Shown here one piece after another: positions 10,080 through 32,627 of a DNA stretch of 64,000 nucleotides; the stretch's first letter is position 1; each line of letters begins with the position of its first letter. This DNA comes from an uncultured Clostridia bacterium (GTDB lineage Bacteria; Bacillota; Clostridia; TANB77; CAG-508): contig CALYAM010000001.1 in assembly GCA_944393565.1 (NCBI GenBank), forward strand, positions 58,204-122,203. Direction: 5' to 3'. The position numbers were made by a program, and so were the translations under genes. The notes under the pieces were generated by a model. It saw only the letters and a list, made by a program, of their open reading frames with translations, searched no databases and had not been told where the DNA came from.

Positions 10080-12401
10080 ATGCTAGAATTTACTAATGAA
10101 GAAAAAGACAACTTTACAAAAAAGTTAAATGAAATTGGACTTGATCTTGAAAACATTCCCAATTTTTTAAAGGATTTTAAACCTTTAGATTTTAGACCAT
10201 TAAAAAAATTTGATAATAAAGAGTATTTAGTATACCGTTATGTGCCTGTTTCAAAAATACAAATACTAATAACACCAACTAATCGTTTAACAGATATTAA
10301 AGAAAAATACAGTCTTGCAAAACCCATTTCTGAATACTTAAAACAAGTTACTGAAGAAAATATAGAAAATTTTGCTACCTTTTTAAATATGCTAAAAAAT
10401 ACAAATCTAGAATCTATAAAAGAGATTGAAACAAAACAAGAAAATTTTAGAAAATCTATTCCATATAGAGTAAGATATGAGAAAAACTATTTGTGGCAAA
10501 TTTACTATTCAGAATATTCAAACCAGTATTTTATGCTGGTACCAAGTGAAGAAGGAGAATATGAAACTTTGTTTTATTTATTAAAAGAACAAATAAAACA
10601 AAATAATGAGAATAATCCGGAAGAATACATTTATGTTCCAATTGTAAACTTTGAGCCATCTGAAAATATTTTAAAAAGGGATGAAAGAAGAGATATTGAA
10701 AATTATTTATGGCTTTTTTCCAAACAATGGCCTAATTTTTATGAAGTACAAGATTTCAATGGATTAAGCAAAATTATAATAATAGGAGAGGTTGAGGTTT
10801 ATTCATCTATTTATGCAACATATCGTGTAATGCTAAAAAATAGAGAAGAAGGACTGCAATTTTATAAACAAATTAAGGCATTATTTATTCTACAAACAGA
10901 ATTACCAGACTATTACAAATTTAGAGCTCAAATAGATGAAGATGGAGAGCTACAATTATTTTATAATGAATCTGTAATAAAATATAAAGAGCTTTCTAAT
11001 TTTATAAAATTAGAATGTATTAAAACAATAGAAAACATAGAAAATACTAAAAAAGAAAAAAGAATATTAAGTGCCAAATTAGAAGAATTAAAACAAGTGG
11101 CTAAGAAAAGAGAAGCTGAATTTCAAGAAAAGCAAAAAGAAATAACACTATATTTACAGTATAAAAAAACTTTTTTTGGACGAGTGAAATATTTTTTTAC
11201 CAAGAAAAAAACAAAGGAAAACATACAAACTTTAGTGGAAGAAGTAAAAGTAAGTGTAGAAGATGATGTTTTTTCTTTTGAAGAAAAAGTTTTTTATACA
11301 ATTGAAGATTTAATTTCAATTTGCAATGTATACACAAATATTTCAAAGCAAGTAAAAAACTTTAAATTAGATATTGATGCACTAAGGCAGAAAATAGAAA
11401 ACTTAGAAAGAAAAATAAAGAATGCAAAGCAATATATTAATGAAATAGATAGCCACAAAAAAAGTATTTTTGACTTCTGGAAATTTAGCACTAAAGATGA
11501 AAAACTTGCTTTAAATGAACCTGAGCAAATAGAACAAATAACTCAAAAAAAATCATTAAGAAAAATATTTGACTATGAAAATGATAGAGAAGAAATTACT
11601 AAGCAAATAGATGAGAAACAAAGAAAAATACTTAGCAAAGAAGAAGAAGATAGTATTTTTGTTGCAAAAACACAAATACTACCAATACTTAATAAATTAA
11701 AATCTTTAATAAAGATACCAGATAACAAAATACAGGAAATTTTAGACGAATTAAAAAATGAGGCGATGCAAGAAGAAAAATTGTATGGAAATGAAGAACA
11801 CGATGTCTTTGGTAATACTTATGAAGATAAGACTAAAATAAGAGTTCTTGGCAATAGTAAGCATCGAGAAAATGGCAGGGATAAATTTCAAATTTTAGGA
11901 ATTACTTCAGAAATAAATTTAACAGAATTCAAAGACATATTAAAGAAAATAGAAATTAATTTGTCCAAGGCAATTGAAAAAACTAAGAATGTAATAGATA
12001 TGCCAATATATAAACTTACTTCTAGTGATGAAAAAATAGATTTATATAATTATAATATATATTCTATAAATCCAGAAAAAGAGTTAGAAAAATCAGACAA
12101 GCAAATACAAGAATTCAATTTATATAAGTTAAATTTAAAAGAGGATATGCCAGCTGTTTTTTATACAAATATAATATATTTTGACAATTATAATAGAACA
12201 TTACCGTTAGGAATGGATAAATCAAATGAACTGATTATAAACTCTAATGATTATTCATTTACACTGCTTAATAAAAAGACAGTTTATACAAATCAATATT
12301 TCCAAGAAAATATAGATGACGCAAAATGGAATGTAAAAAAGGTATATATATATGAATATGATATTGAATTGAAAAGAAAAATGGAGGTTAACAGTGATTA
12401 A
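10080..12401 (+). CDS. Large cytoplasmic K/E-rich coiled-coil protein of unknown function (773 aa), translationally coupled to deoB
   Basis: GGAGG RBS. Long uninterrupted ORF with no signal peptide. The stop overlaps the deoB start. Confidence 0.5.
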   Translation: MLEFTNEEKDNFTKKLNEIGLDLENIPNFLKDFKPLDFRPLKKFDNKEYLVYRYVPVSKIQILITPTNRLTDIKEKYSLAKPISEYLKQVTEENIENFATFLNMLKNTNLESIKEIETKQENFRKSIPYRVRYEKNYLWQIYYSEYSNQYFMLVPSEEGEYETLFYLLKEQIKQNNENNPEEYIYVPIVNFEPSENILKRDERRDIENYLWLFSKQWPNFYEVQDFNGLSKIIIIGEVEVYSSIYATYRVMLKNREEGLQFYKQIKALFILQTELPDYYKFRAQIDEDGELQLFYNESVIKYKELSNFIKLECIKTIENIENTKKEKRILSAKLEELKQVAKKREAEFQEKQKEITLYLQYKKTFFGRVKYFFTKKKTKENIQTLVEEVKVSVEDDVFSFEEKVFYTIEDLISICNVYTNISKQVKNFKLDIDALRQKIENLERKIKNAKQYINEIDSHKKSIFDFWKFSTKDEKLALNEPEQIEQITQKKSLRKIFDYENDREEITKQIDEKQRKILSKEEEDSIFVAKTQILPILNKLKSLIKIPDNKIQEILDELKNEAMQEEKLYGNEEHDVFGNTYEDKTKIRVLGNSKHRENGRDKFQILGITSEINLTEFKDILKKIEINLSKAIEKTKNVIDMPIYKLTSSDEKIDLYNYNIYSINPEKELEKSDKQIQEFNLYKLNLKEDMPAVFYTNIIYFDNYNRTLPLGMDKSNELIINSNDYSFTLLNKKTVYTNQYFQENIDDAKWNVKKVYIYEYDIELKRKMEVNSD

Positions 12402-17798: not shown

Positions 17799-20180
17799 AT
17801 GAAAAAAATTCATGTTTTTTTGCTAATTTTATTTGGAATCATCCTATTTGGCAATATATCACACGCGGCAAGTAGTACAGAATACATTGATTCAGAAGTG
17901 TATGAAATTTCACAATTGGGCGAAGAAAAAATTGCAACAGGTTTAGATCAAAAGAATATGACGGCACAAACAATATTGGATAATTTCACATTGTTTCATA
18001 GTACACTTAGTAAGAAGGCTTATGATTTAGATGATAATGCTGTGGAAAGCACAGAAAAACTTGGCACAGGTTCAAAAATAAAGGCTGTTTTTTCTTATAG
18101 CAGTACTTTTGATTACCCATATGATAGCGTAACTTTAGTACTTTATGGTGATACAAATGGAGATGGAGATATTACTTCAGCAGACGCATTAGCTGTTATT
18201 AAAAATAAAACAGGAAAAGTAAAATTCCAAGATTCGTGTTTTGAAGAAGCAGGAAGGATAACAGAGAACACACGAAAAAATGCATCTATTCCTTCTTCAG
18301 CAGATGCACTAGCTATTATAAAATATAGATTAGGTAAGAACCAAATAACACAAACATATAAAAGAACAATAATAGTATCAAATTATCAAGACTTATATAT
18401 GCAACTTGAACAGGCAAATGAAAATATAAAGTTCGATTCTAGCACTGAAGGAAAACAAATAGAGGCAAGCTATAATCAACTAAAAAATGTTGTTAACACG
18501 TATTGTAAAAGCGATATGTCACAAATTACAAAAGCATTGATATTACATGATTATTTAGTAGCTGGTAGTAAAGTAGATAGAACTTCTGGTAAATATACTG
18601 AAGATTCAGCAGAGAGCAACATACAAAACGTAAATAAAACAATGAATGATTTAGGATTTGCAAATACATATACATCACTTCTTGGAATTGCTGGAATTGA
18701 GTCAAGAGTTATAAAGGGAAGGTCAGGAGCAACTACTATTAATATAATGAATGAAGTAACAATAGATGGACAAATGTATTATGTATCATGTGGAGCAGAT
18801 AGATACATTTCAGATAGGGAAGGTAAAAATGAAGTAAGAAGATATTTCTTTATGAGAAATACAGACGGGTTAAAAGAGCCTTTTTCGGCAAATTCAATGT
18901 TATTTATGTTAGAGCCACAAAGTAATAGAACTTCTACTTCTACAAAATATGAAGGTGTAATTTGGCCAGAATATAGGAAGGAATTGAATTACAAAGACTC
19001 TGAAATAAAATTAGCTAATGGCAAAGTTATAGTAGAAACGCTTTCAGAATTAAAAGAAGCATTACTTTCAGGTAAAAGTTATGCTATAAATGTAGTGGAT
19101 GGTTATTCACAAGAACTATATGAAATAGATGAACGTTGCAAAAAAATACTGGCAAAATATATTAAACCAGGAATGACAATAGAAGAGAAACTACTAACAA
19201 TACATGATTACATATGTTCAAATTTTATAAGAACAGATCATGAGGCAATTCTAGAGAGAGAAAAATCAGATGCTGAATATGATTGCGCATGGGGCCTATA
19301 CAAAAATACAATATTATCTAATATGGGAGACTGCTGGTCAATTACTGATTATTTTAATACTCTATGTGCATATATTGGACTAGAAACAAAATCAGTATCA
19401 GAGCATCAAGTGCCAAATCCATTTGGGTTAGGAAACCATATGTGGAGCCTTGTAAAATTAGATGGAAATTGGTACCACGTAGACTGCGAAGGAGGAGACT
19501 TTTATGCATATGGAAAAGTTGAGAGAAGATGGTTCTTATACAGTGATGATGCTATGCAAATAGAAGAAAATACATATGAACCATGTACTTCTACTAAATA
19601 TGATAACTATGATTGGCCTGAATTTAAAGGAGTAGCATATTATCAAGATGTAACAGGAATAATAGATGAAGATGTTCCAGCAACAAGTATATGGATAGAT
19701 GAGAGAACGGAGACCGTTGTTGGGGATTCATATAATATTATGACAAGAGTATTTCCATATGGCTCTACAAGCAAAGTAACATATACTTCAAGTAATCCTG
19801 CGATAGCAACGATCGATGCAAATGGCAATATGGAGATAAAAGGCAAGGGGCAAGCTACAATAACAGCAAGAACCTCAAATGGAATTACAAGATCATATAC
19901 TTTAACATCTCACTATGTTCCAGACAGAATATTGCTAGATGATTTGACTTTGTCAGTAGGAGAAACTAAACAGGCAATATATAATGTTATACCAGAGGGT
20001 GCTGAATTTGAATCTGAAGGCTGGAGAATAGTAAATGAAGATATTGCAACGATAGATGAAAAAACTGGAAAAGTTACTGGCAAAAGAGCAGGAACTACAT
20101 ATATGTATTTTGATTATAAATACAGAACAGAAGGAACTATTACTAGTACGTCAACATATGCAAGAGTTATAGTAAAATAA
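17799..20180 (+). CDS. Secreted protein with an N-proximal type-I dockerin, a tandem degenerate plus active transglutaminase-like cysteine-protease core, and a C-terminal Big_2 Ig-like domain
   Basis: Signal peptide. Dockerin repeat YGDTNGDGDITSADALAVIKNK with a second segment SSADALAIIKYRLGK. Transglutaminase-like Cys-His-Asp core GDCWSITDYF...GNHMWSLVKLDGNWYHVDCEG. Big_2-like VTYTSSNPAIATIDANGNMEIKGKGQATITA. Confidence 0.6.
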   Translation: MKKIHVFLLILFGIILFGNISHAASSTEYIDSEVYEISQLGEEKIATGLDQKNMTAQTILDNFTLFHSTLSKKAYDLDDNAVESTEKLGTGSKIKAVFSYSSTFDYPYDSVTLVLYGDTNGDGDITSADALAVIKNKTGKVKFQDSCFEEAGRITENTRKNASIPSSADALAIIKYRLGKNQITQTYKRTIIVSNYQDLYMQLEQANENIKFDSSTEGKQIEASYNQLKNVVNTYCKSDMSQITKALILHDYLVAGSKVDRTSGKYTEDSAESNIQNVNKTMNDLGFANTYTSLLGIAGIESRVIKGRSGATTINIMNEVTIDGQMYYVSCGADRYISDREGKNEVRRYFFMRNTDGLKEPFSANSMLFMLEPQSNRTSTSTKYEGVIWPEYRKELNYKDSEIKLANGKVIVETLSELKEALLSGKSYAINVVDGYSQELYEIDERCKKILAKYIKPGMTIEEKLLTIHDYICSNFIRTDHEAILEREKSDAEYDCAWGLYKNTILSNMGDCWSITDYFNTLCAYIGLETKSVSEHQVPNPFGLGNHMWSLVKLDGNWYHVDCEGGDFYAYGKVERRWFLYSDDAMQIEENTYEPCTSTKYDNYDWPEFKGVAYYQDVTGIIDEDVPATSIWIDERTETVVGDSYNIMTRVFPYGSTSKVTYTSSNPAIATIDANGNMEIKGKGQATITARTSNGITRSYTLTSHYVPDRILLDDLTLSVGETKQAIYNVIPEGAEFESEGWRIVNEDIATIDEKTGKVTGKRAGTTYMYFDYKYRTEGTITSTSTYARVIVK

Positions 20181-21160: not shown

Positions 21161-22891
21161 GTGAAAAAACGCGAAATTTTCATAAAATTATTAAGTTCGA
21201 TTATTTTGATAATAATAGCATACACATATATATTACCAAGCATTTCACTAGGTGCTGATATAAAACAGGAGCTTAAAACAGGAATTGATAATTTCCCAGA
21301 TAGCTATCAAGAAAAATTAAAAAAATTGAAAGAATTACACCCTAACTGGAACTTTCAAGCATATTATACAGGAATTGACTGGAACGAATTGATTAAAAAT
21401 GAAACTGGTGAAGTATTACACAAAAGAAGTGTTGTTCCTTCAGATTCACCAGACTTATGGAAATGCAATATGTGTGAAGATGATAAAGGATGGACATGCG
21501 CTTCAAAAGAAATTGTAGAATATTTTATTGATCCAAGGAATTTTTTAAATGAAGTTAATATTTTTCAATTTGAAGAACTTTCATTTAACAAAGATATACA
21601 TACATCAGAAGGAGTGCAAATTGCGGTTAAAAATACATTTCTCGATAATTCTATTACATACTATGATGAGGAAAAAAAACAAAACGTGACAAGAACATAT
21701 ACTGACATAATAATGGAAGTTGCTCAAAAAACTAATATAAGCCCATTCCATATTAAATCAAAAATTATTCAGGAAGTAGGGGCACAGGGAAGTCCATCTG
21801 TTTCAGGGACATATCCGGGTTATGAAAACTACTACAACTTTTTTAATTATGGTTCACATGATACAGGAGATCCAATTGTAAATGGTTTAAGCTTTGCAAA
21901 AGAAAAAGGTTGGAATAATCCATATAAAGCAATATTAGGAGGAGCAGAGCTAATAGGAACAACATATGTAAATCAGGGGCAGAATACATCTTATTTTTTT
22001 AAATATGACGTTGTTGGAGATAAAATACTGAAAGTTAATGAAACTAGTACTATAAGTGATTCATCACTTTACGCACATCAATATATGACAAATATAATGG
22101 ATCCTTATAGTCAAAGTTCATCTGTTTATAATGCTTATGTTAAAAATGGAAATATTGATGCTACCTTAAATTTTATTATCCCAGTATATGAAAATATGGA
22201 GGAATGTTATAAAAAACCAACAAAATATACTATAAAAGATGGAGAACTGTATTATGCAGATATAATAAAAGAAACAGGAGCAAGGGATGATGTGAAATTT
22301 GATAGTCCAGTTGTGTATTCAATACAAAAAGATGAAATAGTAATTATGATAAATAGAAAATGCGTATTCTCAGATGGAATATATTGGGACTTAGTTATGT
22401 TAGAAAATGGTTGGAATGTATATGTAGAAAGTAGCGACATGAAGCCATACAGAAGTGATGAAATGGAAAAACAAGATGAAACAGTTATTATAGATGAAGA
22501 AAGAAATACAATTACAGTAACACCACCAGTAGAGATGAAAAAAGTTATAGACGAACTTAAAATATCAAATTATAGTATAATAGATTCATCTGGAAAGGAA
22601 GTTGCAGGAGATAATAAAAAAGTTTGTACTGGCTATAAATTAAATATTTTAAAAGAAGATAATAAAACATTAGAAAAAGAATATACATTAATAAAAGTAG
22701 GAGATGTAAATGGAGATGGTAATCTACTGGCTACTGATTCTTTGGCAATATTAAAACATAGTATTGATGAAAGAAAGTTAGAAGAAGTATACTTAGAGGC
22801 TGCGGATGTTAGAAAAGATGGAAAAATAAATTCTGTAGATGCTTTACTTGTTTTAAAATATAGTCTAGGGAAAGTAAGTATTAATATTTAA
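21161..22891 (+). CDS. Putative peptidoglycan hydrolase (glucosaminidase-like domain) with a C-terminal type-I dockerin
   Basis: GTG start with an AGGAGG RBS and an N-terminal TM/signal segment. C-terminal duplicated Ca-loop repeats GDVNGDGNLLATDSLAILKHSI and DVRKDGKINSVDALLVLKYSLGK. The central region is weakly GH73-like (…ISPFHIKSKIIQEVGAQGS); the catalytic assignment is tentative. Confidence 0.5.
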   Translation: MKKREIFIKLLSSIILIIIAYTYILPSISLGADIKQELKTGIDNFPDSYQEKLKKLKELHPNWNFQAYYTGIDWNELIKNETGEVLHKRSVVPSDSPDLWKCNMCEDDKGWTCASKEIVEYFIDPRNFLNEVNIFQFEELSFNKDIHTSEGVQIAVKNTFLDNSITYYDEEKKQNVTRTYTDIIMEVAQKTNISPFHIKSKIIQEVGAQGSPSVSGTYPGYENYYNFFNYGSHDTGDPIVNGLSFAKEKGWNNPYKAILGGAELIGTTYVNQGQNTSYFFKYDVVGDKILKVNETSTISDSSLYAHQYMTNIMDPYSQSSSVYNAYVKNGNIDATLNFIIPVYENMEECYKKPTKYTIKDGELYYADIIKETGARDDVKFDSPVVYSIQKDEIVIMINRKCVFSDGIYWDLVMLENGWNVYVESSDMKPYRSDEMEKQDETVIIDEERNTITVTPPVEMKKVIDELKISNYSIIDSSGKEVAGDNKKVCTGYKLNILKEDNKTLEKEYTLIKVGDVNGDGNLLATDSLAILKHSIDERKLEEVYLEAADVRKDGKINSVDALLVLKYSLGKVSINI

Positions 22892-22940: not shown

Positions 22941-24182
22941 ATGTCTAATTTTAATAAAGTATCAATATTAATTATAATTTTTTTGTTTGCACTGTGCAGT
23001 ACAAATATTGTACAGGCAATGACGATAGTATTGGATCCAGGGCATGGTGGACAAGATCCAGGAACTGTTAATGGAAGTATATATGAAAAAGATATAAATT
23101 TAAAGATTGCAAAATATTTAAAAGAATACTTAGAAGAATATGAAGGTGTTGAAGTAATCCTTACACACAATGGTTTAAGTAGTGGGGAATTAACAATATT
23201 TGAAAGAGCGATAATTGCAAGAAACAAAAAAGCTGATTTATTGGTAAGTATACATATTAATAGTTCAGAAACTTCAGAAGGGGAAGGCGCAGAAGTATAT
23301 GTAAGTGCAAATACTTCACTAGAAAAATATAATAAGGAAACAACAGAACTTGCAAATAAAATATTAGAAAATTTATCTGCTATAGGAATTGCTAATAGGG
23401 GAGTTTTAACTAAATTAATTCCAACAGATACAACAGATGTCTATTCAGATGGAACAAGAGCAGACTATATGGGAATTATTAGATATGCAATGAGGGGAAC
23501 TATGATAGATGATGGAGTAGTTACTATATTGCAAAACGGAGAAAAAGTAGAAGTACCTGAAAGTACATCTGCAAATGTCCAAAATGGAGAGGGAATACCT
23601 ACAATTTTAGTAGAACATTGCTTTATAAAAGGAAATGATTATAAATATATTGATTCAGATGAAGATATTAAAAAATTAGCAAAAGCAGACTTAGATGCAA
23701 TAGTTAAACAATATGATTTAAAACTAAAAACAGATGAAAAAGAGCCAACAACTCCAACAGATCCAACAAAACCAGATGAAATAAGACAAACAGATATAGA
23801 AATAAATGAGAAAGATAAAATAATTAGAATAACACCTTCAATAACAGTAGAAAATTTAGAAGAGAGACTAGAGACAACTGAATATTTTATTATTGACTCA
23901 GAAGGAAAAATATTAGATAAGGAAAAAGAAATCTTAGCTACAGGTTATAAATTGAAAGTTGGAGATAATACATATACAATAATAAAAATGGGTGACGTTA
24001 CAGGAGATGGAAAAGCAATTGCGGTTGATGGACTTGCAATATTAAAGCATAAACTTAAAAAAATAGAACTGGAAGGAATATATTTAAAAGCAGCAGATAC
24101 AACAAATGACGGTGCAATAACATCCGCGGATGCATTAGCTGTGATAAAAGATAGCGTATCTAAATTAATGATCCACTTATAA
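22941..24182 (+). CDS. N-acetylmuramoyl-L-alanine amidase (Amidase_3 family) with a C-terminal type-I dockerin
   Basis: Signal peptide. Amidase_3 motif LDPGHGGQDPGTV with EVILTH…SIHINS. C-terminal GDVTGDGKAIAVDGLAILKHKL and DTTNDGAITSADALAVIKDSV. Confidence 0.7.
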   Translation: MSNFNKVSILIIIFLFALCSTNIVQAMTIVLDPGHGGQDPGTVNGSIYEKDINLKIAKYLKEYLEEYEGVEVILTHNGLSSGELTIFERAIIARNKKADLLVSIHINSSETSEGEGAEVYVSANTSLEKYNKETTELANKILENLSAIGIANRGVLTKLIPTDTTDVYSDGTRADYMGIIRYAMRGTMIDDGVVTILQNGEKVEVPESTSANVQNGEGIPTILVEHCFIKGNDYKYIDSDEDIKKLAKADLDAIVKQYDLKLKTDEKEPTTPTDPTKPDEIRQTDIEINEKDKIIRITPSITVENLEERLETTEYFIIDSEGKILDKEKEILATGYKLKVGDNTYTIIKMGDVTGDGKAIAVDGLAILKHKLKKIELEGIYLKAADTTNDGAITSADALAVIKDSVSKLMIHL

Positions 24183-24205
24183 ATACAAGTTTAATGGAGG
24201 TAAAT

Positions 24206-25639
24206 ATGAGAAAACATAATAGAGTAATATTATTCTTTTTGTTTGTTGCTTTAATTTTTCTTGGAACGACTAATTCATTTGGAGCATATAGTGCAGAAAG
24301 CAAAACTGTAAATTCTGGAGAGAGTTTTAGCGTAACTGTAACATCAAGCGATGCTTTAGAAGCATATAATTTAGATTTATCAGGTTACGAGGGGTTAACA
24401 TTTAATGGATGCTTAATTCCAGAAGGAGGAACACTATCAGATAAAAATGATAATGGAAGTATAGCTTATATTAATGTTTCGGGAACTACCAATACACTTG
24501 GAACTTACCAATTTAGTGCTCCAGAAGTCACAGAAGATACTACATATATAATTCAGTTTTTGGTAGATAAAGAAACACCTGTTACATCAAATATTACAGT
24601 AAAAGCAAACAGCGCTCCAACTGAAGAACCAATAGAAGAACCAATAGAAGAATCCACAGAAGAACCCACAGAAGAACCCACAGAAGAACCAACACAGGAA
24701 CAAAACCCTGATGTGCCAGAGACACCAGCAAAATCTAGCAATACCAATTTAAGAAATTTAGGAATAAGACCAAATGACTTTACAGGATTTAAACCATGGA
24801 TTACATCCTATACTGTAACAAATGTACCAAATGATGTTACTACAATTGAAGTATATGCGTATAAGAGTGAAGATGGTCAAACAATTTCTGGAACAGGGAA
24901 AAAATCATTAGATGAAGGAACAAACCGCTTTCCTGTCACTGTAACTGCTGAAGATGGAACGCAAAAAACGTATACAATTACGGTAATTAGATTAGCAAGT
25001 GAAGAGATAAATAATCCAGATGTAGAACAGGCACCAGAAGTTAAACCAGGATTAACTAGCTTATCTATTGATGGTATTACTTTAAATGAACCATTTAGTC
25101 CTGACAAACAAGAGTATACAGCTGTTTTAGAGAAAGATATTGAAAGTACGACAGTAAATGCAGTAGCTAATATAGAAGGTGCAGTTATTGAAATAGAAGG
25201 AGAAGATAATTTAAGCGGAGAAAATAGTATAATAACAGTAAAAGTAAAAAATACTGATGGAAGTGAAGAAAAAACATATACAATAAACATAACAAAAAAG
25301 ATACAAGAACCTCAAGAAAATGAAAATGAAAACAATATTGCAACCATTGTAGGAAGTTCTAATAACTCATCTGGAAAAGGAAAAATAGGAATGGAAAAAA
25401 TTTTGTTCTGCCTAGGAATTGCAATAATTGCTGCTTTAGGAGTTATATTTACAATAATTAAATATAAAAGAGATAATGGAGACTATGAAGAAATTAATAC
25501 AATAGATTATGTTGGAAATGTCAATCCGATAGAAGCAATTAAAGATGCAAGTAGTGCTACATCTAGGCTTTCTGAGGTAAATGAAGAGACTATTAAAGAA
25601 ACAGCTGGAATACCAAGAAAAAAAGGACGTCATTTTTAA
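24206..25639 (+). CDS. Membrane-anchored surface scaffold. It has a signal peptide, a putative cohesin-like beta-sandwich, an EEP(I/T) acidic linker, two cadherin-like beta-sandwich domains, a TM helix and a 70-aa cytoplasmic tail.
   Basis: The N-terminal module SFSVTVTSSDALEAYNLDLSGYEGLTF resembles cohesin strands. Repeats LTSLSIDGITLNEPFSPDKQEYTAV and NLRNLGIRPNDFTGFKPWITSYTV match the cadherin-like (LSxLxxxxGxLxPxF) pattern. TM ILFCLGIAIIAALGVIFTII. The cohesin call is inferential. Confidence 0.5.
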   Translation: MRKHNRVILFFLFVALIFLGTTNSFGAYSAESKTVNSGESFSVTVTSSDALEAYNLDLSGYEGLTFNGCLIPEGGTLSDKNDNGSIAYINVSGTTNTLGTYQFSAPEVTEDTTYIIQFLVDKETPVTSNITVKANSAPTEEPIEEPIEESTEEPTEEPTEEPTQEQNPDVPETPAKSSNTNLRNLGIRPNDFTGFKPWITSYTVTNVPNDVTTIEVYAYKSEDGQTISGTGKKSLDEGTNRFPVTVTAEDGTQKTYTITVIRLASEEINNPDVEQAPEVKPGLTSLSIDGITLNEPFSPDKQEYTAVLEKDIESTTVNAVANIEGAVIEIEGEDNLSGENSIITVKVKNTDGSEEKTYTINITKKIQEPQENENENNIATIVGSSNNSSGKGKIGMEKILFCLGIAIIAALGVIFTIIKYKRDNGDYEEINTIDYVGNVNPIEAIKDASSATSRLSEVNEETIKETAGIPRKKGRHF

Positions 25640-25812: not shown

Positions 25813-28203
25813 ATGAAGAAAGTAAAACTTTTTTATCTGGTTTTTATTATTACATTATTTCTAGTTCTTATATGCTTTATACCAAACCAAGTTTTTGCAA
25901 CTACCAACTATTTTAAAACATCAACTTATAAAATTACAGAGGCGAAAAATAAAGTATTATCAAACTTAGATGCAAGTAATGTAAGTGTTCAAAATGTACT
26001 TGCAAATGTGTCGATTAATTTTAATACAGACATGTATGAAATAAGAGCCTATAACAATGGTGCGGAATTAGCATTAGATAAATTAATCGGAACTGGAAGC
26101 ATGCTAAAAGTAATGCACAAAAACTATAATTACTCTGTTGATTCAATAACGATTATTTTATATGGAGATACAAATGGAGATGGAAGCATTTCAGCAACAG
26201 ATGCACTTGCGATAATAAAAAATAAAACAGGTAAAATAAAATTTGAAAATGAATATTTTTTAGAAGCAGGCAGAATTACAACTCTAACTAGACAAAAAAA
26301 CGATGTGCCATCGTCAGTTGATGCTTTGGCTATAATAAAAAACAAACTGGGAAAATTAAATATTAGTCAATTTAGAAATATACAAGTAAAAGTTTCATCA
26401 TATGATGATTTGTACACTCAACTTAAACAATGTAATACAAATATAGAATTTGACAAAACGGCAGATAACTATAATGAAATGATATCGAGCTATGAAAAAC
26501 TACAAAGGATTGTAAAAAAATATTGTACAAATGAAATGTCTCAAACTGTAAAAGCTCTCGTTTTACATGACTATTTGGCGGCTGGAAGTATTTTAAATAA
26601 TGACACAACATACTGTGATAATTCAAGCAAGGAAAGTCATATTTGCAATATAGATGGAACAATGAATCAACTCGGATTTGCAAATACATATACATGCCTT
26701 TTAGGAATTGCAGGGATACCTTCTGAAATAAAACGAGATAAATACGCAAATTACGCCAATAATGCAATAAATGAAGTAATAATAGATGGACAAATGTATT
26801 ATGTTTCATGCGGAGTTGATAGTTATCTTTCTAAGGTTGAAGGAAAGGGCAAACTAAGAAGATATTACTTTTTAAGGAATACTGAGCAATTAAAAGAAAC
26901 TTTTTGGGAAGGTGATATTTACTTTGGCTATACACCATCAACTAACAATACATCAACATCTACAAAATATTATGGAGTAAGATGGCCAGAATACAGATCA
27001 ACTTTAGATTACAAAAATAATGAAATTAAATTAGCAACAGGGAAAACGATAGTTCGAAGCATGAGTGAACTTAAAGATGCAGTTATTAATAAAAAGGATT
27101 ATATTATAGATGTGATAGATGCAAATACAGAATCATTGGCAGAAGTAGACCAATTTAGTAAAAAAGTAATAGAAAAATATATAACAAAAGATATGAGCGA
27201 AGCTGAAAAGGCACTTGCAATATATGATTTTGTATGTTCTAATTTTATGAGAAATGATCATATAGCATATAGGGAAAGAACTAATGTGTCAAATTCAGAT
27301 TATGATGTTGCATGGGGCTCGTATAAGACATCCCTATTATCTGGGATGGGTGATTGCATAGGAGCGACGAATTCTTTTAATACTTTATGTGCATATGCAG
27401 GACTAGAAACTAAAACAATAAATGAACATCAGGTAGATGCTATACATGGTATGGGCAATCATCATTGGAGCTTGGTAAAAATAGATAACCAATGGTATCA
27501 CTGCGACTGTGAAGGAAGCGATTATTATACATATGGACAAGTAGACAGAACATGGTTTTTGTATAGTGATAGAGCAATGGGAGCAACAAATAATACTGTT
27601 GAAGCATGTACTTCTACTAAATATGATGACTATGATTGGCCTGAATTTAAGGGAATAGCATATTATCAAGATAAAACAGACATTATAGATGAAAAAGTTC
27701 CAGCTACAAGTTTTTGGACATCAGAAAGAACAGAAGCAATTGTTGGGGATGAATTTGCAATAATGACAAGGATATTCCCATATGGTTCTACTGATAAACC
27801 TACATATAGTTCAAGTAACCCTAAAGTAGCAACAATAGATAATGAAGGAAATATTAGTGTATTATCAATAGGAACAACCACAATAAAAATAGATGTAAAT
27901 GGAATTTCAAAAACATTTACAATAAAAACAGGTTCAAGACCTAAAGATATAATTGCTAAAGATATGACTTTGAAAGTCGGGCAAACAAGCAAGATTAATT
28001 ATGAAGTAAATCCAAGTGATGCTCTATATACAAAAATTTATTGGTACAGTTCTAATGAAAACATTGTAACAGTGGACGAAGATGGAAATGTTACAGCTGT
28101 AGGAGAGGGAACTGCAAATATAAGATTAAGCTATACATATAGAATGGGAAACTCAACGTATTATTCTTCTGGTAAATCTGCTAAGATAACAGTAACTAAA
28201 TAA
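25813..28203 (+). CDS. Paralog of the 17799 protein: N-proximal dockerin, transglutaminase-like cysteine-protease core and a C-terminal Big_2 domain
   Basis: Dockerin repeat YGDTNGDGSISATDALAIIKNK with SSVDALAIIKNKLGK. Transglutaminase-like core GDCIGATNSFNTLC...GNHHWSLVKIDNQWYHCDCEG. Big_2 PTYSSSNPKVATIDNEGNISV. Long stretches are near-identical to 17799-20180 at the DNA level. Confidence 0.6.
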   Translation: MKKVKLFYLVFIITLFLVLICFIPNQVFATTNYFKTSTYKITEAKNKVLSNLDASNVSVQNVLANVSINFNTDMYEIRAYNNGAELALDKLIGTGSMLKVMHKNYNYSVDSITIILYGDTNGDGSISATDALAIIKNKTGKIKFENEYFLEAGRITTLTRQKNDVPSSVDALAIIKNKLGKLNISQFRNIQVKVSSYDDLYTQLKQCNTNIEFDKTADNYNEMISSYEKLQRIVKKYCTNEMSQTVKALVLHDYLAAGSILNNDTTYCDNSSKESHICNIDGTMNQLGFANTYTCLLGIAGIPSEIKRDKYANYANNAINEVIIDGQMYYVSCGVDSYLSKVEGKGKLRRYYFLRNTEQLKETFWEGDIYFGYTPSTNNTSTSTKYYGVRWPEYRSTLDYKNNEIKLATGKTIVRSMSELKDAVINKKDYIIDVIDANTESLAEVDQFSKKVIEKYITKDMSEAEKALAIYDFVCSNFMRNDHIAYRERTNVSNSDYDVAWGSYKTSLLSGMGDCIGATNSFNTLCAYAGLETKTINEHQVDAIHGMGNHHWSLVKIDNQWYHCDCEGSDYYTYGQVDRTWFLYSDRAMGATNNTVEACTSTKYDDYDWPEFKGIAYYQDKTDIIDEKVPATSFWTSERTEAIVGDEFAIMTRIFPYGSTDKPTYSSSNPKVATIDNEGNISVLSIGTTTIKIDVNGISKTFTIKTGSRPKDIIAKDMTLKVGQTSKINYEVNPSDALYTKIYWYSSNENIVTVDEDGNVTAVGEGTANIRLSYTYRMGNSTYYSSGKSAKITVTK

Positions 28204-28463: not shown

Positions 28464-30129
28464 TTGTCATACATTATGTTTATTGTTCCATTCTGGTATG
28501 GATTGTTTTACGAATATGCAGCATTTGCTACAGGAATTGTTTTTTTAATATTACTTTGTAAAACAATAATGCAAAATAAAAAAATAATTATAAAAAGTGG
28601 CAAAAATTTTTATATTTATTCTATATTGATATTTTCTTATTTGGCAACTACAATTTGGGCTATTGATAAAGAAATGGCAATAGAGGGTTTTTTGAAGTTT
28701 TTACCGGGAATTTTTTATTTTATATTGCTAATGCAGTTCGAAAAAGAAGAAAAACAAAAAATATTAAACATGATACCAATAAGTGGTGTTACGATGGTTT
28801 TAATATCTTATGTTTTAGGACAAATACCAATACTTAAAGCTCAATTTTTTTCAGACAATGGTAGATTAGTAGGTTTTTTCCAATATTCTAATAGCTTTGC
28901 ATTATTTTTATTAATAAGTATTGTTATAATAGCAAACAAGAAACAAAAATATTTAAAAGACAAAATAGCACTGTGCATTCTCACACTTGGAATTTTAACA
29001 ACAGGTAGTAGATTTACATTTATCCTTACAGTACTATTTGGAATTTACCAGATAATAAAAAATAGACAAAGCAAGAAAAAAATACTAATTGGTATATTCC
29101 TAGCAATAGTAACACTAATTGTATCCGCAATTTTACTTGAAATTACAGGTAATATTGATATATTTGAAAGACTATTCAAAATATCATTCGAAGAGAGCTC
29201 TGTAATAGGAAGAATAATATATTATTTAGATGGATTAAAAATAATATTAAAAAATCCATTTGGATTACGGTTACATGGGATATAGTTATTACTACCCAGA
29301 AATCCAAACAGCAGACTATGCTATAAAATTTGTACATAATGATTTTATACAACAAGCTATAGATGCAGGCATTATTTCGATGCTTATGCTAATATATTTA
29401 TTTGTAAGTAATATATTTTCTAAAAAAAGCACTAGCTATAAGAGAGAAATATTAATTATTATGCTATTACACATGCTATTAGAATTTGATATGCAATTTA
29501 TAGTAATTCACTTAATATTTGTTATGTTATTGGCAGATAAAGAAGAAAAAGCTTACTTCTTTAGTATAAAACAGGCAAAACTAACAATTGTATTACTAGT
29601 CATAATTCAAACAAGCATTTTTATGTATTTTGGTATAGGTTCTATTTTGGATAAATATGGAAACTACCAAACTGCTTTAGCCTTGATTCCAAACAAAACA
29701 AATCCAAAGATACAAAAATTAAAAAATATGGATAATTTAGCAGAAGCCTATGAAGTTGCAAATGAATTACTGAGAGATAACAAATATATTCTGACAGCAT
29801 ATAAAGCAAAAGCCAATTATGCATATTATACAGAGAATTGGGAACAAATGATAGAAAATCAAAAAAAAGTAATTAGTCTGGATAAATATAATATAGAAAA
29901 TTATGAAGAATACATTTTCATGATTAGCAATGGATTAGATAAAACAATAAAACAAAATCAAACTGAAAAAACGAAATATTTAACAAAAGAGGCCTTAGAA
30001 GTTCGTAATCTTTTAGAAAATGTAAAAAAAGCTACAAGTCCATTAGCTTATAAAATAATAGACAAGCCAGAATTGGAATTAAATGATGCAACTAAGAAAT
30101 ATTTGAATGTGTTAGAAAACTACGATTAA
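28464..30129 (+). pseudogene. Wzy_C / O-antigen-ligase-like polytopic membrane protein with a C-terminal TPR-like soluble domain, split by a frameshift near 29265
   Basis: The N-terminal ORF (8 or more TM helices) ends ...NPFGLRLHGI*. The second ORF begins in another frame, with a 26-nt overlap, right at the conserved HNDFIQQAIDAGII loop motif of Wzy_C/O-antigen ligases. Confidence 0.5.
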
Positions 30130-30146: not shown

Positions 30147-32613
30147 ATGTTAAAAAACATTAAAATTATAATTGGTTTAATTCTTGTTATGCAAGTTGTA
30201 TTTACAGGAGTAATACCTGTTATAAGTAATGCAACAACGCAAAGCCTCATAACAGATGAAACTCTTTTAGCAACGATACATGATTATAATGGAGATAAAA
30301 TTATATCACAAAATGAACTAGACAAAGTAAGTTACCTCCAAATTTGGGAAGGAACGAAGGACCTAAGTGGTCTAGAAAATGCAAAAAACTTACGTAAAAT
30401 TTACTATGAATATGATGGCACGGCACTTGACTTTAGCAATATTAACCTAGATAAAGTAACTGATGTAATTATTTCAATATCAGATAATAATAAATTTGAT
30501 ATTGAGTTTTTAGACAAATTTCCAAGATTAAGAAAACTTGAAATAATATCAGATTATATTAGTAATGTAGATTTATCTAAACTTGCCAATTTCCAAAACA
30601 TAAAAAATCTTGAAATAAGAATTAATGATATTACTAATTTAAACGGAATAAACCAGTTAAAAAATCTAGAAGAACTATCAATAATAGCAAAGAGTAATGT
30701 AGACATAACTGAAATTGAAAAATTAAGTAAATTGGAAAAAGTATCATTTGATAATGTAAGACTTCAAAATGCAGAAGCTCTTGGGAAACTAATTAATTTA
30801 AAGGAAATTAGATTTTTCTCATGTACAGGAATATCTTCACCAAGTTATTTAAAGAATAATACAAATCTATGCAATTTAGACTTTTCACATTCTGATATAA
30901 CAGATATCTCTTTTGCAAAAGGCTTAAAAGAACTTGAAGAAATAGATTTAACTTCTACAAATGTAACAACAATAGAAGTATTAAAAGATTTGCCTAAATT
31001 GACTAGAGCAACTGTATTTGACTCTAAAGTTACAGAGGATCAAAGAGTTAATTTAATGGAATTTGAAGATTATACAGCATATGTTGGAGAAAGAAAAAAT
31101 ATAACTCCTATATTAGATGGAGTTATAGATAGGGAAAATTGGAATTATACATCCTCTGATGAAGATGTTGCCACAGTAAGTGAAGATGGAGCAGTACAAA
31201 CACTTAAAGTTGGAGAAGCTACAATAACAATGACAAATAAATTAACAAGTGATGTAAAAACAATGAAAATTACAGTAAAAGGAATTGAAAGTAATCCAGC
31301 TATAGGTGTTATGACAAATGCAATTCAGATAAGTGATAATTTAGTATTAAAGGAAAATGGAGAACTGTGGAAAATACATATAGATGAAGGAAAATCTGAA
31401 AGAGTAGATACTAATGTTGATAAATGTATAAGTGAATTTATATATAACGCAGATAGTTACCCTGTTCCATATACATTAAAATTAAAAGCTAATGGTACTG
31501 GTGTGCTTGAATTTAATGGAGTAACAAGTAAAATAGAAAATGTAAAAGATATCTGCAGGAAAGGCTACTTAAGTACAGATGGAATCTATTATGAACTTTT
31601 ATTTGACGGCACATGGTTAGAAGTAACAGACAACGTTAAAAAAATAGTTGACTGGTATTTAGTTAAAAACGACGGAAAGACATATGACACTTATGGACAG
31701 TTAGCGTGCAATTTTGAAATAATTGCAGCATCAGGAACTACTGTTGTAGATGAAAATAAAACTGTTTGGAAAAAGAGCTCAAGCACAGTAACTTCTTACA
31801 AATGGGAAAAAATTGGAGAAAACTTTAAACGCTATACAGACGGAACAGAAAATTCATATTCCACTTCATACGAAACAAATGATGGAAAGATTATGAATGT
31901 ATTTGGTAATGAAGTTCAGTACCAAAAAGAAGTATACTGTGAATCAAATAAATTAAGGCTTGATAAAAACAAAAATGCATTATTAAATGATACAATTATT
32001 TTAGATGCTGTAACTTCTATGTATGTAATAGATTCAAATAATATTGTATTTATAAGAAACGATGGAAGTGCATGGGTTTTGCAATTAGAAGGAAAGGCTA
32101 AATTAGAAAAAATAGAAGAACAAACCGGGAAAGTATTTTTCACAAGTGATAAGCTAAAAACAAAAGTAATAGCTTTAGATGAACATGAAGGTGATATAGT
32201 TATAGGAGAAGCACTAATTCGGATTTGATATAAACAATCTAGAAATATCAAATATTATACAGGAATTTAAAGAAGACTATACAGTAAAAGTATATTCTAA
32301 TGGCAAAGAATTACCAGATGATGATAATTTGGCAACAGGAGATGTAATTAGATTATATAATGATGACAATAAGCCTATAAAAGAATATATCGCATTAGTG
32401 TATGGAGATGTAACAAGTTCTGGAAATCCAGGCGCAAAAGATGCTCTAGCTATAGTAAAGAATAGAACAGGCAAAGTTGTAATAGAAAATGCATTAAACT
32501 TAGAAGCTGCAAGAGTAACAGAAATCACAAGAAAAACAGTAGGAGAACCTACATCTTCAGATTCACTCGCAATTATAAAATCAAAGCTTGGAAAATATAC
32601 AATTAATTTATAA
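30147..32613 (+). pseudogene. Secreted LRR (internalin-like) protein with a Big_2 domain, a beta-rich region and a C-terminal dockerin, interrupted by a frameshift at about 32213
   Basis: A 693-aa ORF ends ...GEALIRI*. In another frame an ORF with no start codon continues FGFDINNLEI...VYGDVTSSGNPGAKDALAIVKNRTGK...SSDSLAIIKSKLGK (dockerin). The whole is collinear with the intact paralog at 32628-35054. Confidence 0.55.
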
Positions 32614-32627
32614 GGAGGAAGTATAAA

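Follow-up and report, generated by a model that had tools for sequence, protein, structure and literature searches.

One gene in the window, which is the whole 64,000-nucleotide stretch of clostridial DNA analyzed here, probably encodes a docking receptor, monovalent and anchored in the membrane, for peptidoglycan hydrolases that carry dockerins. Its N-terminal module (N-module) is most likely a socket for the dockerins of neighbouring enzymes, as comparative genomics suggests. A sequence-only reading had already proposed a docking anchor, and this idea has gained ground: cohesins are the best fold match, the gene lies among four dockerin genes, and over ~90 loci the presence and class of the N-module track the dockerin. 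What that reading overlooked is the cargo, which, judged from sequence, is peptidoglycan hydrolases rather than carbohydrate-degrading enzymes.

Gene and domain layout of the proposed receptor

The receptor reading frame is open from 24194 to 25639 on the + strand, with an ATG at 24206 and the stop codon ending at 25639 (Table 1). The spacing of a GGAGG element to this ATG makes 24206 the likely true start, giving a product of 477 aa. The protein begins with a signal peptide and a ~106-aa beta module, continues through an acidic Pro/Glu linker and two cadherin-like domains, and ends with a transmembrane (TM) helix and a tail. Sequence, Pfam and the AF2 model all agree with this layout, which, from the cohesin-like tip to the cytoplasmic tail, is the one proposed earlier. 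Read by eye, residues 1-27 (MRKHNRVILFFLFVALIFLGTTNSFGA) form a Sec-type signal with a basic N-terminus, a hydrophobic core and a closing SFGA, and the linker, at about residues 134-172, reads APTEEPIEEPIEESTEEPTEEPTEEPTQEQNPDVPE. Hydropathy, charge and the AF2 helices at residues 2-19 and 396-423 indicate that the receptor is a bitopic type I protein with its N-terminus outside and its C-terminus inside. A Pfam scan of the receptor returned no SLH and no Gram_pos_anchor match; its C-terminus consists of the TM helix and a tail ending in RKKGRHF.

Table 1. Features of the receptor gene and its dockerin-bearing neighbours (positions in the window).
Feature	Position	Strand	Residues	Basis or remark
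Partner 3, transglutaminase-core + Big_2	17799..20180	+		Pfam; N-proximal dockerin from residue ~116
Partner 1, predicted secreted GH73-type N-acetylglucosaminidase	21161..22891	+		C-terminal type I dockerin
Partner 2, Amidase_3 N-acetylmuramoyl-L-alanine amidase	22941..24182	+		Pfam; C-terminal dockerin, residues 351-403, nt ~23991-24149
Shine-Dalgarno GGAGG	24196..24200	+		5 nt 5' of ATG 24206; direct sequence reading
Receptor gene, predicted 477-aa type I membrane protein	24206..25639	+		Stop codon included
Signal peptide	24206..24286	+	1-27	Sequence reading, AF2 helix 2-19, aligned homolog N-termini
N-module, class A, proposed dockerin socket	24287..24604	+	28-133	Compact 9-stranded cohesin-like beta sandwich
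Acidic Pro/Glu/Thr-rich linker, predicted disordered	24605..24721	+	134-172	Weak Pfam PT-repeat match
Cadherin-like domain 1	24731..24997	+	~176-264	Pfam PF12733, invariant columns, AF2 strands 182-262
Cadherin-like domain 2	25046..25300	+	~281-365	PF12733 best stretch 283-364, AF2 strands 283-364
Single transmembrane helix	25400..25459	+	399-418	Hydropathy maximum, AF2 helix 396-423, KYKRD next
Cytoplasmic tail, 59 aa	25460..25636	+	419-477	Basic juxtamembrane, acidic middle, basic end
C-terminal motif RKKGRHF-COOH	25616..25636	+		Family consensus [KR][KR][KR]G[KR]HF or KGKRFK
Partner 4, paralogous transglutaminase-core + Big_2	25813..28203	+		Pfam; N-proximal dockerin from residue ~117

The stalk of the receptor matches Cadherin-like PF12733 in two stretches (E 2e-20; 73.5 bits against a gathering threshold of 24.2). 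AF2 builds each domain as a beta sandwich, and the block means of pLDDT are ~81-94 over most of each. The two cadherin-like repeats claimed earlier are found by Pfam and by AF2 strands alike. Domain 1 opens with a near-invariant KSSN(A/T)NLxNLGIxPNDFxGF, the most conserved region of the family in the homolog alignment. Relatives also give weak Pfam matches to TP_0781 and to Enas (endospore appendage), the latter marginal; these fall on the cadherin-like region and were set aside.

A diverged cohesin-like tip

Structure prediction and genomic context support a cohesin-like receptor tip, reduced in size and strongly diverged, that would serve as a socket. Modelled by AF2 (pLDDT 90.4), the N-module has nine strands, which form a beta sandwich superposable on solved cohesins. 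In a Foldseek search with this model, cohesins account for 17 of the 19 matches at E<=1e-3, with TMq of 0.46-0.70. The module is ~106 aa long, compared with ~140 aa for cohesins, and the window holds no second copy.

Sequence searches give a fainter picture. Pfam finds no Cohesin (PF00963) match in the window N-module at E<=10 and none among the ~43 window ORFs scanned, and neither the full receptor protein nor the N-module family profile retrieves a cohesin from the PDB sequences. Ten class-A relatives yield only scattered weak Ig-like matches in Pfam. The relative P0052, which is related to the window N-module (phmmer E 7.7e-16), scores E 1.4e-4 and 22.5 bits against Pfam Cohesin, under the gathering score of 24.1, and P0053 and P0043 reach E ~5e-3; all of these alignments fall in the C-terminal two thirds of the model. 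The cohesin-like character claimed by the sequence-only reading therefore stands on the Foldseek and AF2 results and on context, and lacks a Pfam Cohesin match in the module's own sequence. The socket of class B relatives scores as Big_2 rather than cohesin, which suggests that the receptor role may not depend on cohesin ancestry.

Dockerin-tagged wall enzymes beside the receptor

Pfam places four Dockerin_1 genes within 7 kb of the receptor on the same strand. All four dockerins are type I and share the helix motif DAL.I[LI]K; in partner 3 the second repeat lacks the Ca-loop consensus. The dockerin of partner 1 (residues 514-567, nt ~22700-22888; Dockerin_1 4e-11) matches the solved dockerins 1ohz_B and 2vn5_B by sequence. 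The catalytic domain of this enzyme matches SagB (6fxp/6u0o, E 4e-12), Atl (6fxo, 1e-10) and AtlE (4pi7, 1e-10) in the PDB, and its NCBIfam SagB match, at E 1.9e-17, is far under the equivalog-type cut-off. In most related loci, the gene immediately 5' of the receptor gene is a partner 1 ortholog. In the window, only 23 nt separate the stop codon of partner 2 from the receptor ATG.

A sortase and LRR/Big_2 surface proteins are also encoded in the receptor cluster. An origin from a prophage or mobile element was rejected in view of the housekeeping genes for RecA, RNase Y, pyruvate kinase and YchF and of the even GC of the window. No cellulosome genes are present within the window.

The same docking receptor could instead display weapons, with the held glucosaminidase, amidase and transglutaminase-fold enzymes attacking competitors' walls on contact and not remodelling the wall of the producer. 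Dockerin-tagged lysozymes and other wall hydrolases of cellulosome producers have been read in this way, as a "lyticome", a term coined there (PMC6403190, PMC6487960), and the LRR/Big_2 proteins and sortase of the cluster would fit a contact or adhesion locus. We regard this use as unlikely: the minimal conserved unit, one GH73 enzyme plus the receptor, is surrounded by housekeeping genes in many Clostridia, there is no recognisable immunity gene, and the closest characterised GH73 relatives, SagB, Atl and AtlE, are self-acting autolysins.

N-module and dockerin vary together

The comparison set comprises about 90 related loci, with presence and absence counted per 50%-identity cluster. Of the clusters with an N-module, 19 have a gene for a dockerin enzyme directly upstream and 1 does not; of those without the module, 0/6 have one (Fisher p = 3e-5). 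In the loci examined, this gene is 0-70 nt upstream of N-module-bearing receptors, with the exception of the L077/L080 clade, which has the N-module and no nearby dockerin. A sizeable receptor sub-family carries no N-module at all, and within 5 kb of these receptors homologs of dockerin, GH73 and amidase are all missing.

The class of N-module follows the type of dockerin as well. Class A N-modules pair with DAL.ILK dockerins in 14/14 distinct sequence pairs, class B (Big_2-like) modules with DY..IKN in 16/16, class C with DLL.IQK in 7/7 and class D with DMY in 2/2. Module class and dockerin helix motif thus co-vary perfectly, in counts that are not phylogenetically independent. Both tail-motif clades include modules of classes A, B and C; class D was seen with RFK only.

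Two near-identical operons, L031 and L041, locate this variation in the DNA. Their identity is 93-100% outside nt ~241-790 and 37-68% inside, and the divergent block of ~550 nt runs from the dockerin helices across the intergenic spacer and the signal peptide through the N-module. The cadherin-like domain is 98% identical between the two, compared with 45% for the dockerin. From this pattern, dockerin, signal peptide and N-module appear to have been exchanged jointly as one ~550-nt cassette. Since dockerin and N-module adjoin in the DNA, one recombination tract could swap both without functional coupling.

These data bear on two further readings. The first takes the N-module for a generic adhesin or spacer of Ig-like type; the dockerins would use a canonical cohesin elsewhere in the genome, and adjacency would reflect only the co-regulation of envelope genes. 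This is improbable, as it fails to explain why a dockerin neighbour is always missing where the receptor lacks the module, why dockerin helix motifs switch exactly with N-module class, or why the L031/L041 breakpoints coincide with the dockerin-to-module block. In the second, the enzymes bind the cadherin-like domains, or the receptor mainly binds or senses carbohydrate or wall, with the N-module as a dispensable decoration. Domain 1 is indeed the most conserved part of the family, and the sizeable sub-family that works without an N-module implies a core function of stalk, TM helix and tail that is independent of docking. This second reading is nevertheless very improbable: members with both cadherin-like domains and no N-module lack a nearby dockerin enzyme, and between L031 and L041 the strong variation lies in the dockerins, with the cadherin-like domain nearly constant.

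Least plausible of all is a sporulation device: the receptor would hold the amidase, the glucosaminidase and the transglutaminase-type enzymes on the forespore or in the intermembrane space, where they would remodel cortex or coat. SpoIIM (55319-55981 in the window) and BofA (near L006) mark the organism as a spore former, and sporulation precedents exist for Amidase_3 and transglutaminase activities, but the Enas matches of relatives are marginal and overlap the cadherin-like region.

A conserved cytoplasmic tail

Residues 399-418 (ILFCLGIAIIAALGVIFTII) are the hydropathy maximum of the receptor, with a mean Kyte-Doolittle value of 2.87. KYKRD follows directly as a positive-inside flank, and together with the AF2 helix these features uphold the earlier claim of a C-terminal TM segment. 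The tail had been given as 70 aa; the string quoted for it is itself 59 aa long. The AF2 model places a low-confidence helix at residues 441-459 of the tail.

Conservation is concentrated at the tail end. The search for homologs with conserved tails, suggested by the sequence-only reading, found a shared C-terminal motif, G[KR][HRK]F(K), in 112/120 homologs, and G, H and F are unvarying in 123/123 HF-type tails. Across 181 representatives, the median net charge changes along the tail from +3 beside the membrane through -12 in its central part to +4 at the C-terminus. The near-invariant [KR][KR]G[KR]HF end implies that the receptor tail is under selection. A homolog search that used the TM helix and tail alone gave no candidates that could be scored.

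In the related loci inspected, no cytoplasmic neighbour gene is consistently linked to the receptor. Only Peptidase_U32 and LexA recur nearby, in some loci and with inconsistent linkage. The JGI name of the relative P0072, "Na+-transporting decarboxylase gamma subunit", was rejected as a TM-helix artefact. Within the library searched, neither the receptor operon nor the tail motif was found described.

Proposed mechanism

In the docking model, the N-module would bind dockerins, presumably in a Ca2+-dependent manner as in cellulosomes. Two cadherin-like domains form the stalk of the receptor, beyond which a flexible acidic linker bears the cohesin-like module as the outermost part. A single socket facing several dockerin-tagged enzymes suggests that the enzymes dock singly and in turn. 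Docking would retain secreted wall hydrolases at the producer's surface, with the stalk setting their distance from the membrane; the stalk, which is conserved more than any other part, probably spans the wall or binds to it. Wall cutting during growth, turnover or daughter-cell separation would then be localised instead of diffusive, presumably on the cell's own wall. Inside the cell, the acidic tail with its basic/aromatic [KR][KR]G[KR]HF end most likely acts as a short linear motif, and a cytoplasmic or membrane-surface factor may read it and thereby position, regulate or turn over the receptor.

A broader reading joins three parts, and as a whole we hold it to be tentative and rather doubtful: the receptor operon would be a widespread, previously unrecognised means by which Clostridia control their own autolysins. 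First, a dockerin and a cohesin-like module would form a plug-and-socket tether on a membrane-spanning stalk. Second, the division or elongation machinery, or a protease, would read the invariant [KR][KR]G[KR]HF end; if the motif is read inside, the cell would set where and when wall hydrolases are held outside. Third, sister lineages would have re-paired the dockerin with non-cohesin (Big_2-like) sockets, in which case dockerins would be general-purpose plugs and receptors would be exchanged as cassettes.

Comparison with known systems

The receptor resembles the type I cohesin-dockerin pairs and scaffoldins of cellulosomes, yet displays several distinctions. Its N-module model matches their cohesins best (1OHZ, C. 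thermocellum CipA-Xyn10B; 2VN5, C. cellulolyticum; R. flavefaciens ScaB/ScaE), its partners bear bona fide two-repeat Ca-loop dockerins, apart from the second repeat of partner 3, and socket and plug diversify jointly, like species- or type-specific cohesin-dockerin pairs. Unlike cellulosomal cohesins, the N-module is short and stays below the Pfam threshold. Cellulosomes use multi-cohesin scaffolds anchored by SLH repeats or LPXTG/sortase and carry plant-polysaccharide enzymes, whereas the receptor has a single socket, is anchored by a TM helix with a cytoplasmic tail, and neighbours GH73, Amidase_3 and transglutaminase-core proteins. In C. perfringens NagH/NagJ/NanJ (2VO8, 2W1N) and A. fulgidus 2XDH, cohesins lie inside secreted enzymes and link enzymes together; these systems have no membrane receptor, cadherin-like stalk or conserved cytoplasmic motif.

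Closer parallels exist in Ruminococcus, where, according to a recent preprint, sequence-divergent cohesins are seen by predicted structure only and some are monovalent with a C-terminal TM anchor (bioRxiv 10.64898/2026.02.05.704116). On that account, membrane-anchored single-cohesin proteins are no longer unprecedented. The Ruminococcus proteins serve starch and fibre degradation with many dockerin-bearing glycoside hydrolases, and the portion of the preprint available describes no GH73/amidase operon pairing, cadherin-like stalk or KGKHF tail. By analogy with S. aureus SagB-SpdC, to which the catalytic domain of partner 1 is related through SagB, a membrane protein would hold or position a hydrolase. 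SagB-SpdC is an intramembrane complex and FtsEX an ABC-type transducer, whereas the receptor would use a dockerin-socket contact on a long extracellular stalk. The "lyticome" idea of Vermassen et al. 2019 (PMC6403190) speculated on dockerin-tagged wall hydrolases held on a cohesin scaffold in cellulosome producers. It shares the dockerin-bearing wall hydrolases with the present system, which differs in having a receptor of its own, in a two-gene operon that is dedicated and widely conserved.

Significance

The ways in which Gram-positive bacteria retain secreted wall hydrolases, and prevent them from lysing the cell, are only partly understood. Two kinds of answer are known: repeats that bind the wall (SH3b, LysM, choline-binding) and a small number of membrane regulators (FtsEX, SpdC). 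If the docking model is true, a cohesin-like socket on a membrane stalk, operon-paired with a GH73 glucosaminidase, would be a new tethering principle. The seven-residue cytoplasmic motif could be used as bait for an intracellular partner, and the natural L031/L041 cassette swap would delimit the interacting units. Minimal sockets of ~106 aa, each matched to its dockerin and together falling into at least four specificity classes, could become orthogonal parts for protein assembly. More broadly, the docking model, if correct, would move cohesin-dockerin biology from polysaccharide degradation to envelope housekeeping in common, non-cellulolytic Clostridia of the human gut.

Architecture of the putative receptor and its neighbours

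The gene for the putative docking receptor probably starts at the ATG given in the sequence-only reading, which stands 5 nt behind a GGAGG ribosome-binding site, and this gives a 477-aa product. AlphaFold modelled the full-length protein at a mean pLDDT of 69.5, with three confident beta domains as separate sandwiches, disordered low-confidence linkers between them, a helix and a poorly ordered tail, also of low confidence. Sequence, Pfam, hydropathy and this model confirm all the features described in the sequence-only reading, which had proposed a membrane-spanning scaffold with a cohesin-like module, cadherin-like domains and a cytoplasmic tail; only the length of the tail needs correcting, from 70 to 59 aa.

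Features of the window (nucleotides) and of the receptor (residues)
Feature	Position	Strand	Remarks
773-aa ORF	10080-12401		no Pfam family at E<=1e-4; overlaps start of directly downstream metalloenzyme/sulfatase-superfamily gene
Transglutaminase core + Big_2 + dockerin	17799-20180	+	Pfam; ~55-aa segment 17900-18140, dockerin 18144-18340
GH73-type N-acetylglucosaminidase, C-terminal dockerin	21161-22891	+	576 aa; Pfam dockerin 4e-11; ~55-aa segment 22520-22700
Amidase_3 + dockerin	22941-24182	+	stop codon 23 nt upstream of receptor ATG; ~55-aa segment 23800-23990
Receptor ORF as listed	24194-25639	+	GGAGG 24196-24200; ATG 24206
Second transglutaminase core + Big_2 + dockerin	25813-28203	+	Pfam; ~55-aa segment 25920-26160, dockerin 26161-26360
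273-aa ORF	28464-29285		Wzy_C/O-antigen-ligase match just at threshold
289-aa ORF	29260-30129		overlaps 273-aa ORF
Surface-protein cluster	30147-36627		two LRR + Big_2 proteins, sortase, 265-aa protein with faint NEAT/pilin-like matches
LRR/Big_2 gene	30147-32228
Out-of-frame piece	32218-32610	+
Gene after the piece	32628-35054
Sortase	35155-35805
Signal peptide, Sec-type	residues 1-27
N-module region, ~106 aa	residues 28-133		beta sandwich 28-133
Acidic Pro/Glu/Thr linker	residues 134-172		quoted in the sequence-only reading
Two Cadherin-like PF12733 domains	between linker and hydrophobic segment		Pfam E 2e-20; beta sandwiches 182-262, 283-364
Hydrophobic segment	residues 399-418		top hydropathy of whole protein; modelled helix 396-423
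Tail, 59 aa	C-terminus		starts KYKRD, ends RKKGRHF; one possible helix 441-459

Four genes for dockerin-bearing proteins flank the receptor gene, and the helix motif DAL.I[LI]K is common to all four dockerins. The GH73 protein matches NCBIfam SagB (E 1.9e-17) and the solved S. aureus SagB, Atl glucosaminidase and AtlE domains (E 4e-12 to 1e-10), and its dockerin matches 1ohz_B and other classical type I dockerins. By homology, at least two of the four putative cargo enzymes clearly belong to the peptidoglycan hydrolases rather than to the polysaccharide-degrading enzymes. The receptor would keep such hydrolases on the producer surface, at the tip of the linker and two-domain stalk, and wall cutting would thereby be localised for growth, turnover or cell separation. 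With one socket for several dockerin-tagged enzymes, the receptor would presumably hold a single enzyme at any given time. The same lytic cargo could instead be displayed against competitors as a 'lyticome' (PMC6403190; also PMC6487960), a reading that we consider unlikely beside retention for the producer's own wall.

A segment of about 55 aa (...ATGYKL......YT[IL]IK.GD) precedes every dockerin of the cluster, an arrangement reminiscent of the X-module/dockerin dyads of type II/III systems; amidase and GH73 protein cross-match at E ~1e-26, beyond what the dockerin alone would give. Both transglutaminase-core proteins carry their dockerins near the N-terminus, and these may be single-site, since no D.N.DG calcium loop is present in their second repeat (RITTLTRQKNDVPSSVDALAIIKNK). 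The out-of-frame piece downstream is homologous to that N-terminal dockerin region (phmmer E 3e-24), has degenerate Ca-loops (YGDVTSSGNPGAKDALAIVKNR...SSDSLAIIKSKLG) and looks like the LRR protein's dockerin tail, which a frameshift (from pseudogene decay or an assembly error) has severed, or else like a small ORF in its own right. The two overlapping ORFs before the surface-protein cluster could together represent a single polytopic membrane gene broken by a frameshift, and Pfam Gram_pos_anchor gave no match in that cluster at E<=0.01. Among genomes, the nearest match (69% identity) is a MAG of an uncultured Clostridium from the human gut.

A diverged cohesin-like module

The window N-module has no Pfam match even at E<=10, and a profile from 29 family members found no cohesin among PDB sequences. 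An AlphaFold model built on the 29-member alignment has nine strands (pLDDT 90.4), and in Foldseek cohesins account for 17 of its 19 matches at E<=1e-3 (best E 3.5e-5, TMq 0.46-0.70). Cohesin also gives the best Pfam E-value among the 29 members. The homolog P0052, clearly related to the window N-module (phmmer E 7.7e-16), reaches E 1.4e-4 and 22.5 bits, just below the gathering score of 24.1, and P0053 and P0043 reach E ~5e-3; all these alignments cover the C-terminal two thirds of the Pfam model up to its last position. The module is therefore termed cohesin-like on the structural match plus a weak sequence bridge through near-threshold relatives: by sequence alone it is not, by predicted structure it is. 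It is compact and strongly diverged, and we do not class it as a Pfam-level cohesin. A reading of the module as nothing more than an Ig-like spacer, with the actual cohesin encoded at another genomic site, is improbable. The window holds no second N-module copy, and Pfam Cohesin is absent from the roughly 43 window ORFs scanned.

Comparative evidence for docking

Scripted analysis of 89 related loci (L-numbers) reveals a conserved operon. A dockerin-bearing gene, usually a GH73 ortholog and sometimes an amidase, ends 0-70 nt upstream of every receptor that has a folded N-module and available upstream sequence, except in the L077/L080 clade. That clade alone has an N-module (Big_2-like) yet no dockerin gene within 5 kb, with just a 104-aa ORF 148-185 nt upstream. 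Receptors without an N-module (L042-L056, L058-L060, L062, L065, L069, L073, L078, L081, L083, L085, L087-L089) pass from signal peptide and Ser/Thr/Asn-rich linker directly to the cadherin-like domains. The KGKRFK ending is retained by most of those whose C-terminus is intact, and none of this sub-family has a dockerin, GH73 or amidase homolog within 5 kb. Among clusters at 50% identity, which are phylogenetically non-independent, an upstream dockerin is present/absent in 19/1 with an N-module versus 0/6 without (Fisher p = 3e-5).

At least four N-module classes can be told apart: A, the window type; B, scored as Big_2 in homolog P0101 (Pfam, E 4e-7); C, an A relative with 'AWNLKL'; and a fourth, D. 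In distinct sequence pairs, each class is always matched to a single dockerin helix motif: DAL.ILK for A (14/14), DY..IKN for B (16/16), DLL.IQK for C (7/7) and DMY for D (2/2). Both tail-motif clades (HF and RFK) contain receptors of classes A, B and C, so receptor-core phylogeny by itself does not explain the pairing. All partner dockerins of the Big_2-type relatives (L002, L007, L008, L012, L031-L039, L057, L084, L086) have DY(V/M).IKNYIM helices, and here a dockerin may pair with an Ig-like receptor that is not a cohesin. At L002, L005, L006, L008 and L009, in several otherwise different genomes, a large Peptidase_U32 gene lies directly upstream of the operon, usually on the opposite strand.

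Loci L031 and L041 are 93-100% identical in DNA over the enzyme gene, linker and both cadherin-like domains, versus 37-68% from past the dockerin's first Ca-loop to the N-module end (nt ~241-790 of L031). Protein identity is 97% in the enzyme flank, 45% in the dockerin, 35% in the signal peptide and 23% in the N-module (class B versus C), then 95% in the linker and 98% in the cadherin-like domains. This pattern indicates that plug and socket were swapped jointly, with breakpoints at domain borders; since the two adjoin in DNA, hitch-hiking is a less likely alternative. Presence/absence, class pairing and swap are most economically read as a matched interacting pair, in which the N-module would bind the dockerin. 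Docking on the cadherin-like domains instead appears very unlikely.

Core and tail of the putative receptor

The receptor has over 1,000 homologs, and its domain architecture is conserved. Clustering at 50% gives 218 representatives of the N-module family; almost all are 450-570 aa long and carry the module at residues ~24-138. Two parts stand out as conserved: cadherin-like domain 1, starting KSSNANLSNLGIxPNDFxGF, and the extreme C-terminus, which ends in G[KR][HRK]F(K) in 112 of 120 homologs, with G, H and F invariant in all 123 HF-type tails. Past the single TM helix the tail has a median of 72 aa, and its median net charge runs from +3 by the membrane through -12 in the middle (32% Asp+Glu) to +4 in the last ten residues (n=181 representatives). 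This pattern fits a cytoplasmic location. The invariant end has the character of a short linear motif; candidate partners of the tail are a cytoskeletal or divisome protein, an anionic lipid or a protease adaptor.

Members without the N-module show that stalk, TM helix and tail do something in their own right, which may be wall binding or sensing. Such a role would agree with the carbohydrate binding that Pfam curators suggest for PF12733. The socket would then be an add-on that recruits enzymes to this core. The rest of the window is an ordinary low-GC spore-former chromosome (RecA, RNase Y, pyruvate kinase, SpoIIM). A sporulation-specific role for the receptor is hard to credit.

Relation to known systems

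The receptor would work like a monovalent anchoring scaffoldin, but lacks the SLH or LPXTG anchor and polysaccharide-degrading cargo of classical ones, and its cohesin-like module falls below the Pfam Cohesin threshold. A recent Ruminococcus report (bioRxiv 10.64898/2026.02.05.704116) describes cohesins whose identity shows only in the predicted structure, and also TM-helix-anchored single cohesins, so both traits have precedent. Our literature search found no description of an operon dedicated to a GH73 or amidase enzyme and its receptor, a ~106-aa socket, the cadherin-like stalk, socket classes (one of them Big_2-like) exchanged as cassettes, or the invariant cytoplasmic C-terminal motif. 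The earlier interpretation as a docking anchor is partly supported; the system would be a variant of the cohesin-dockerin theme with cell-wall hydrolases as predicted cargo.
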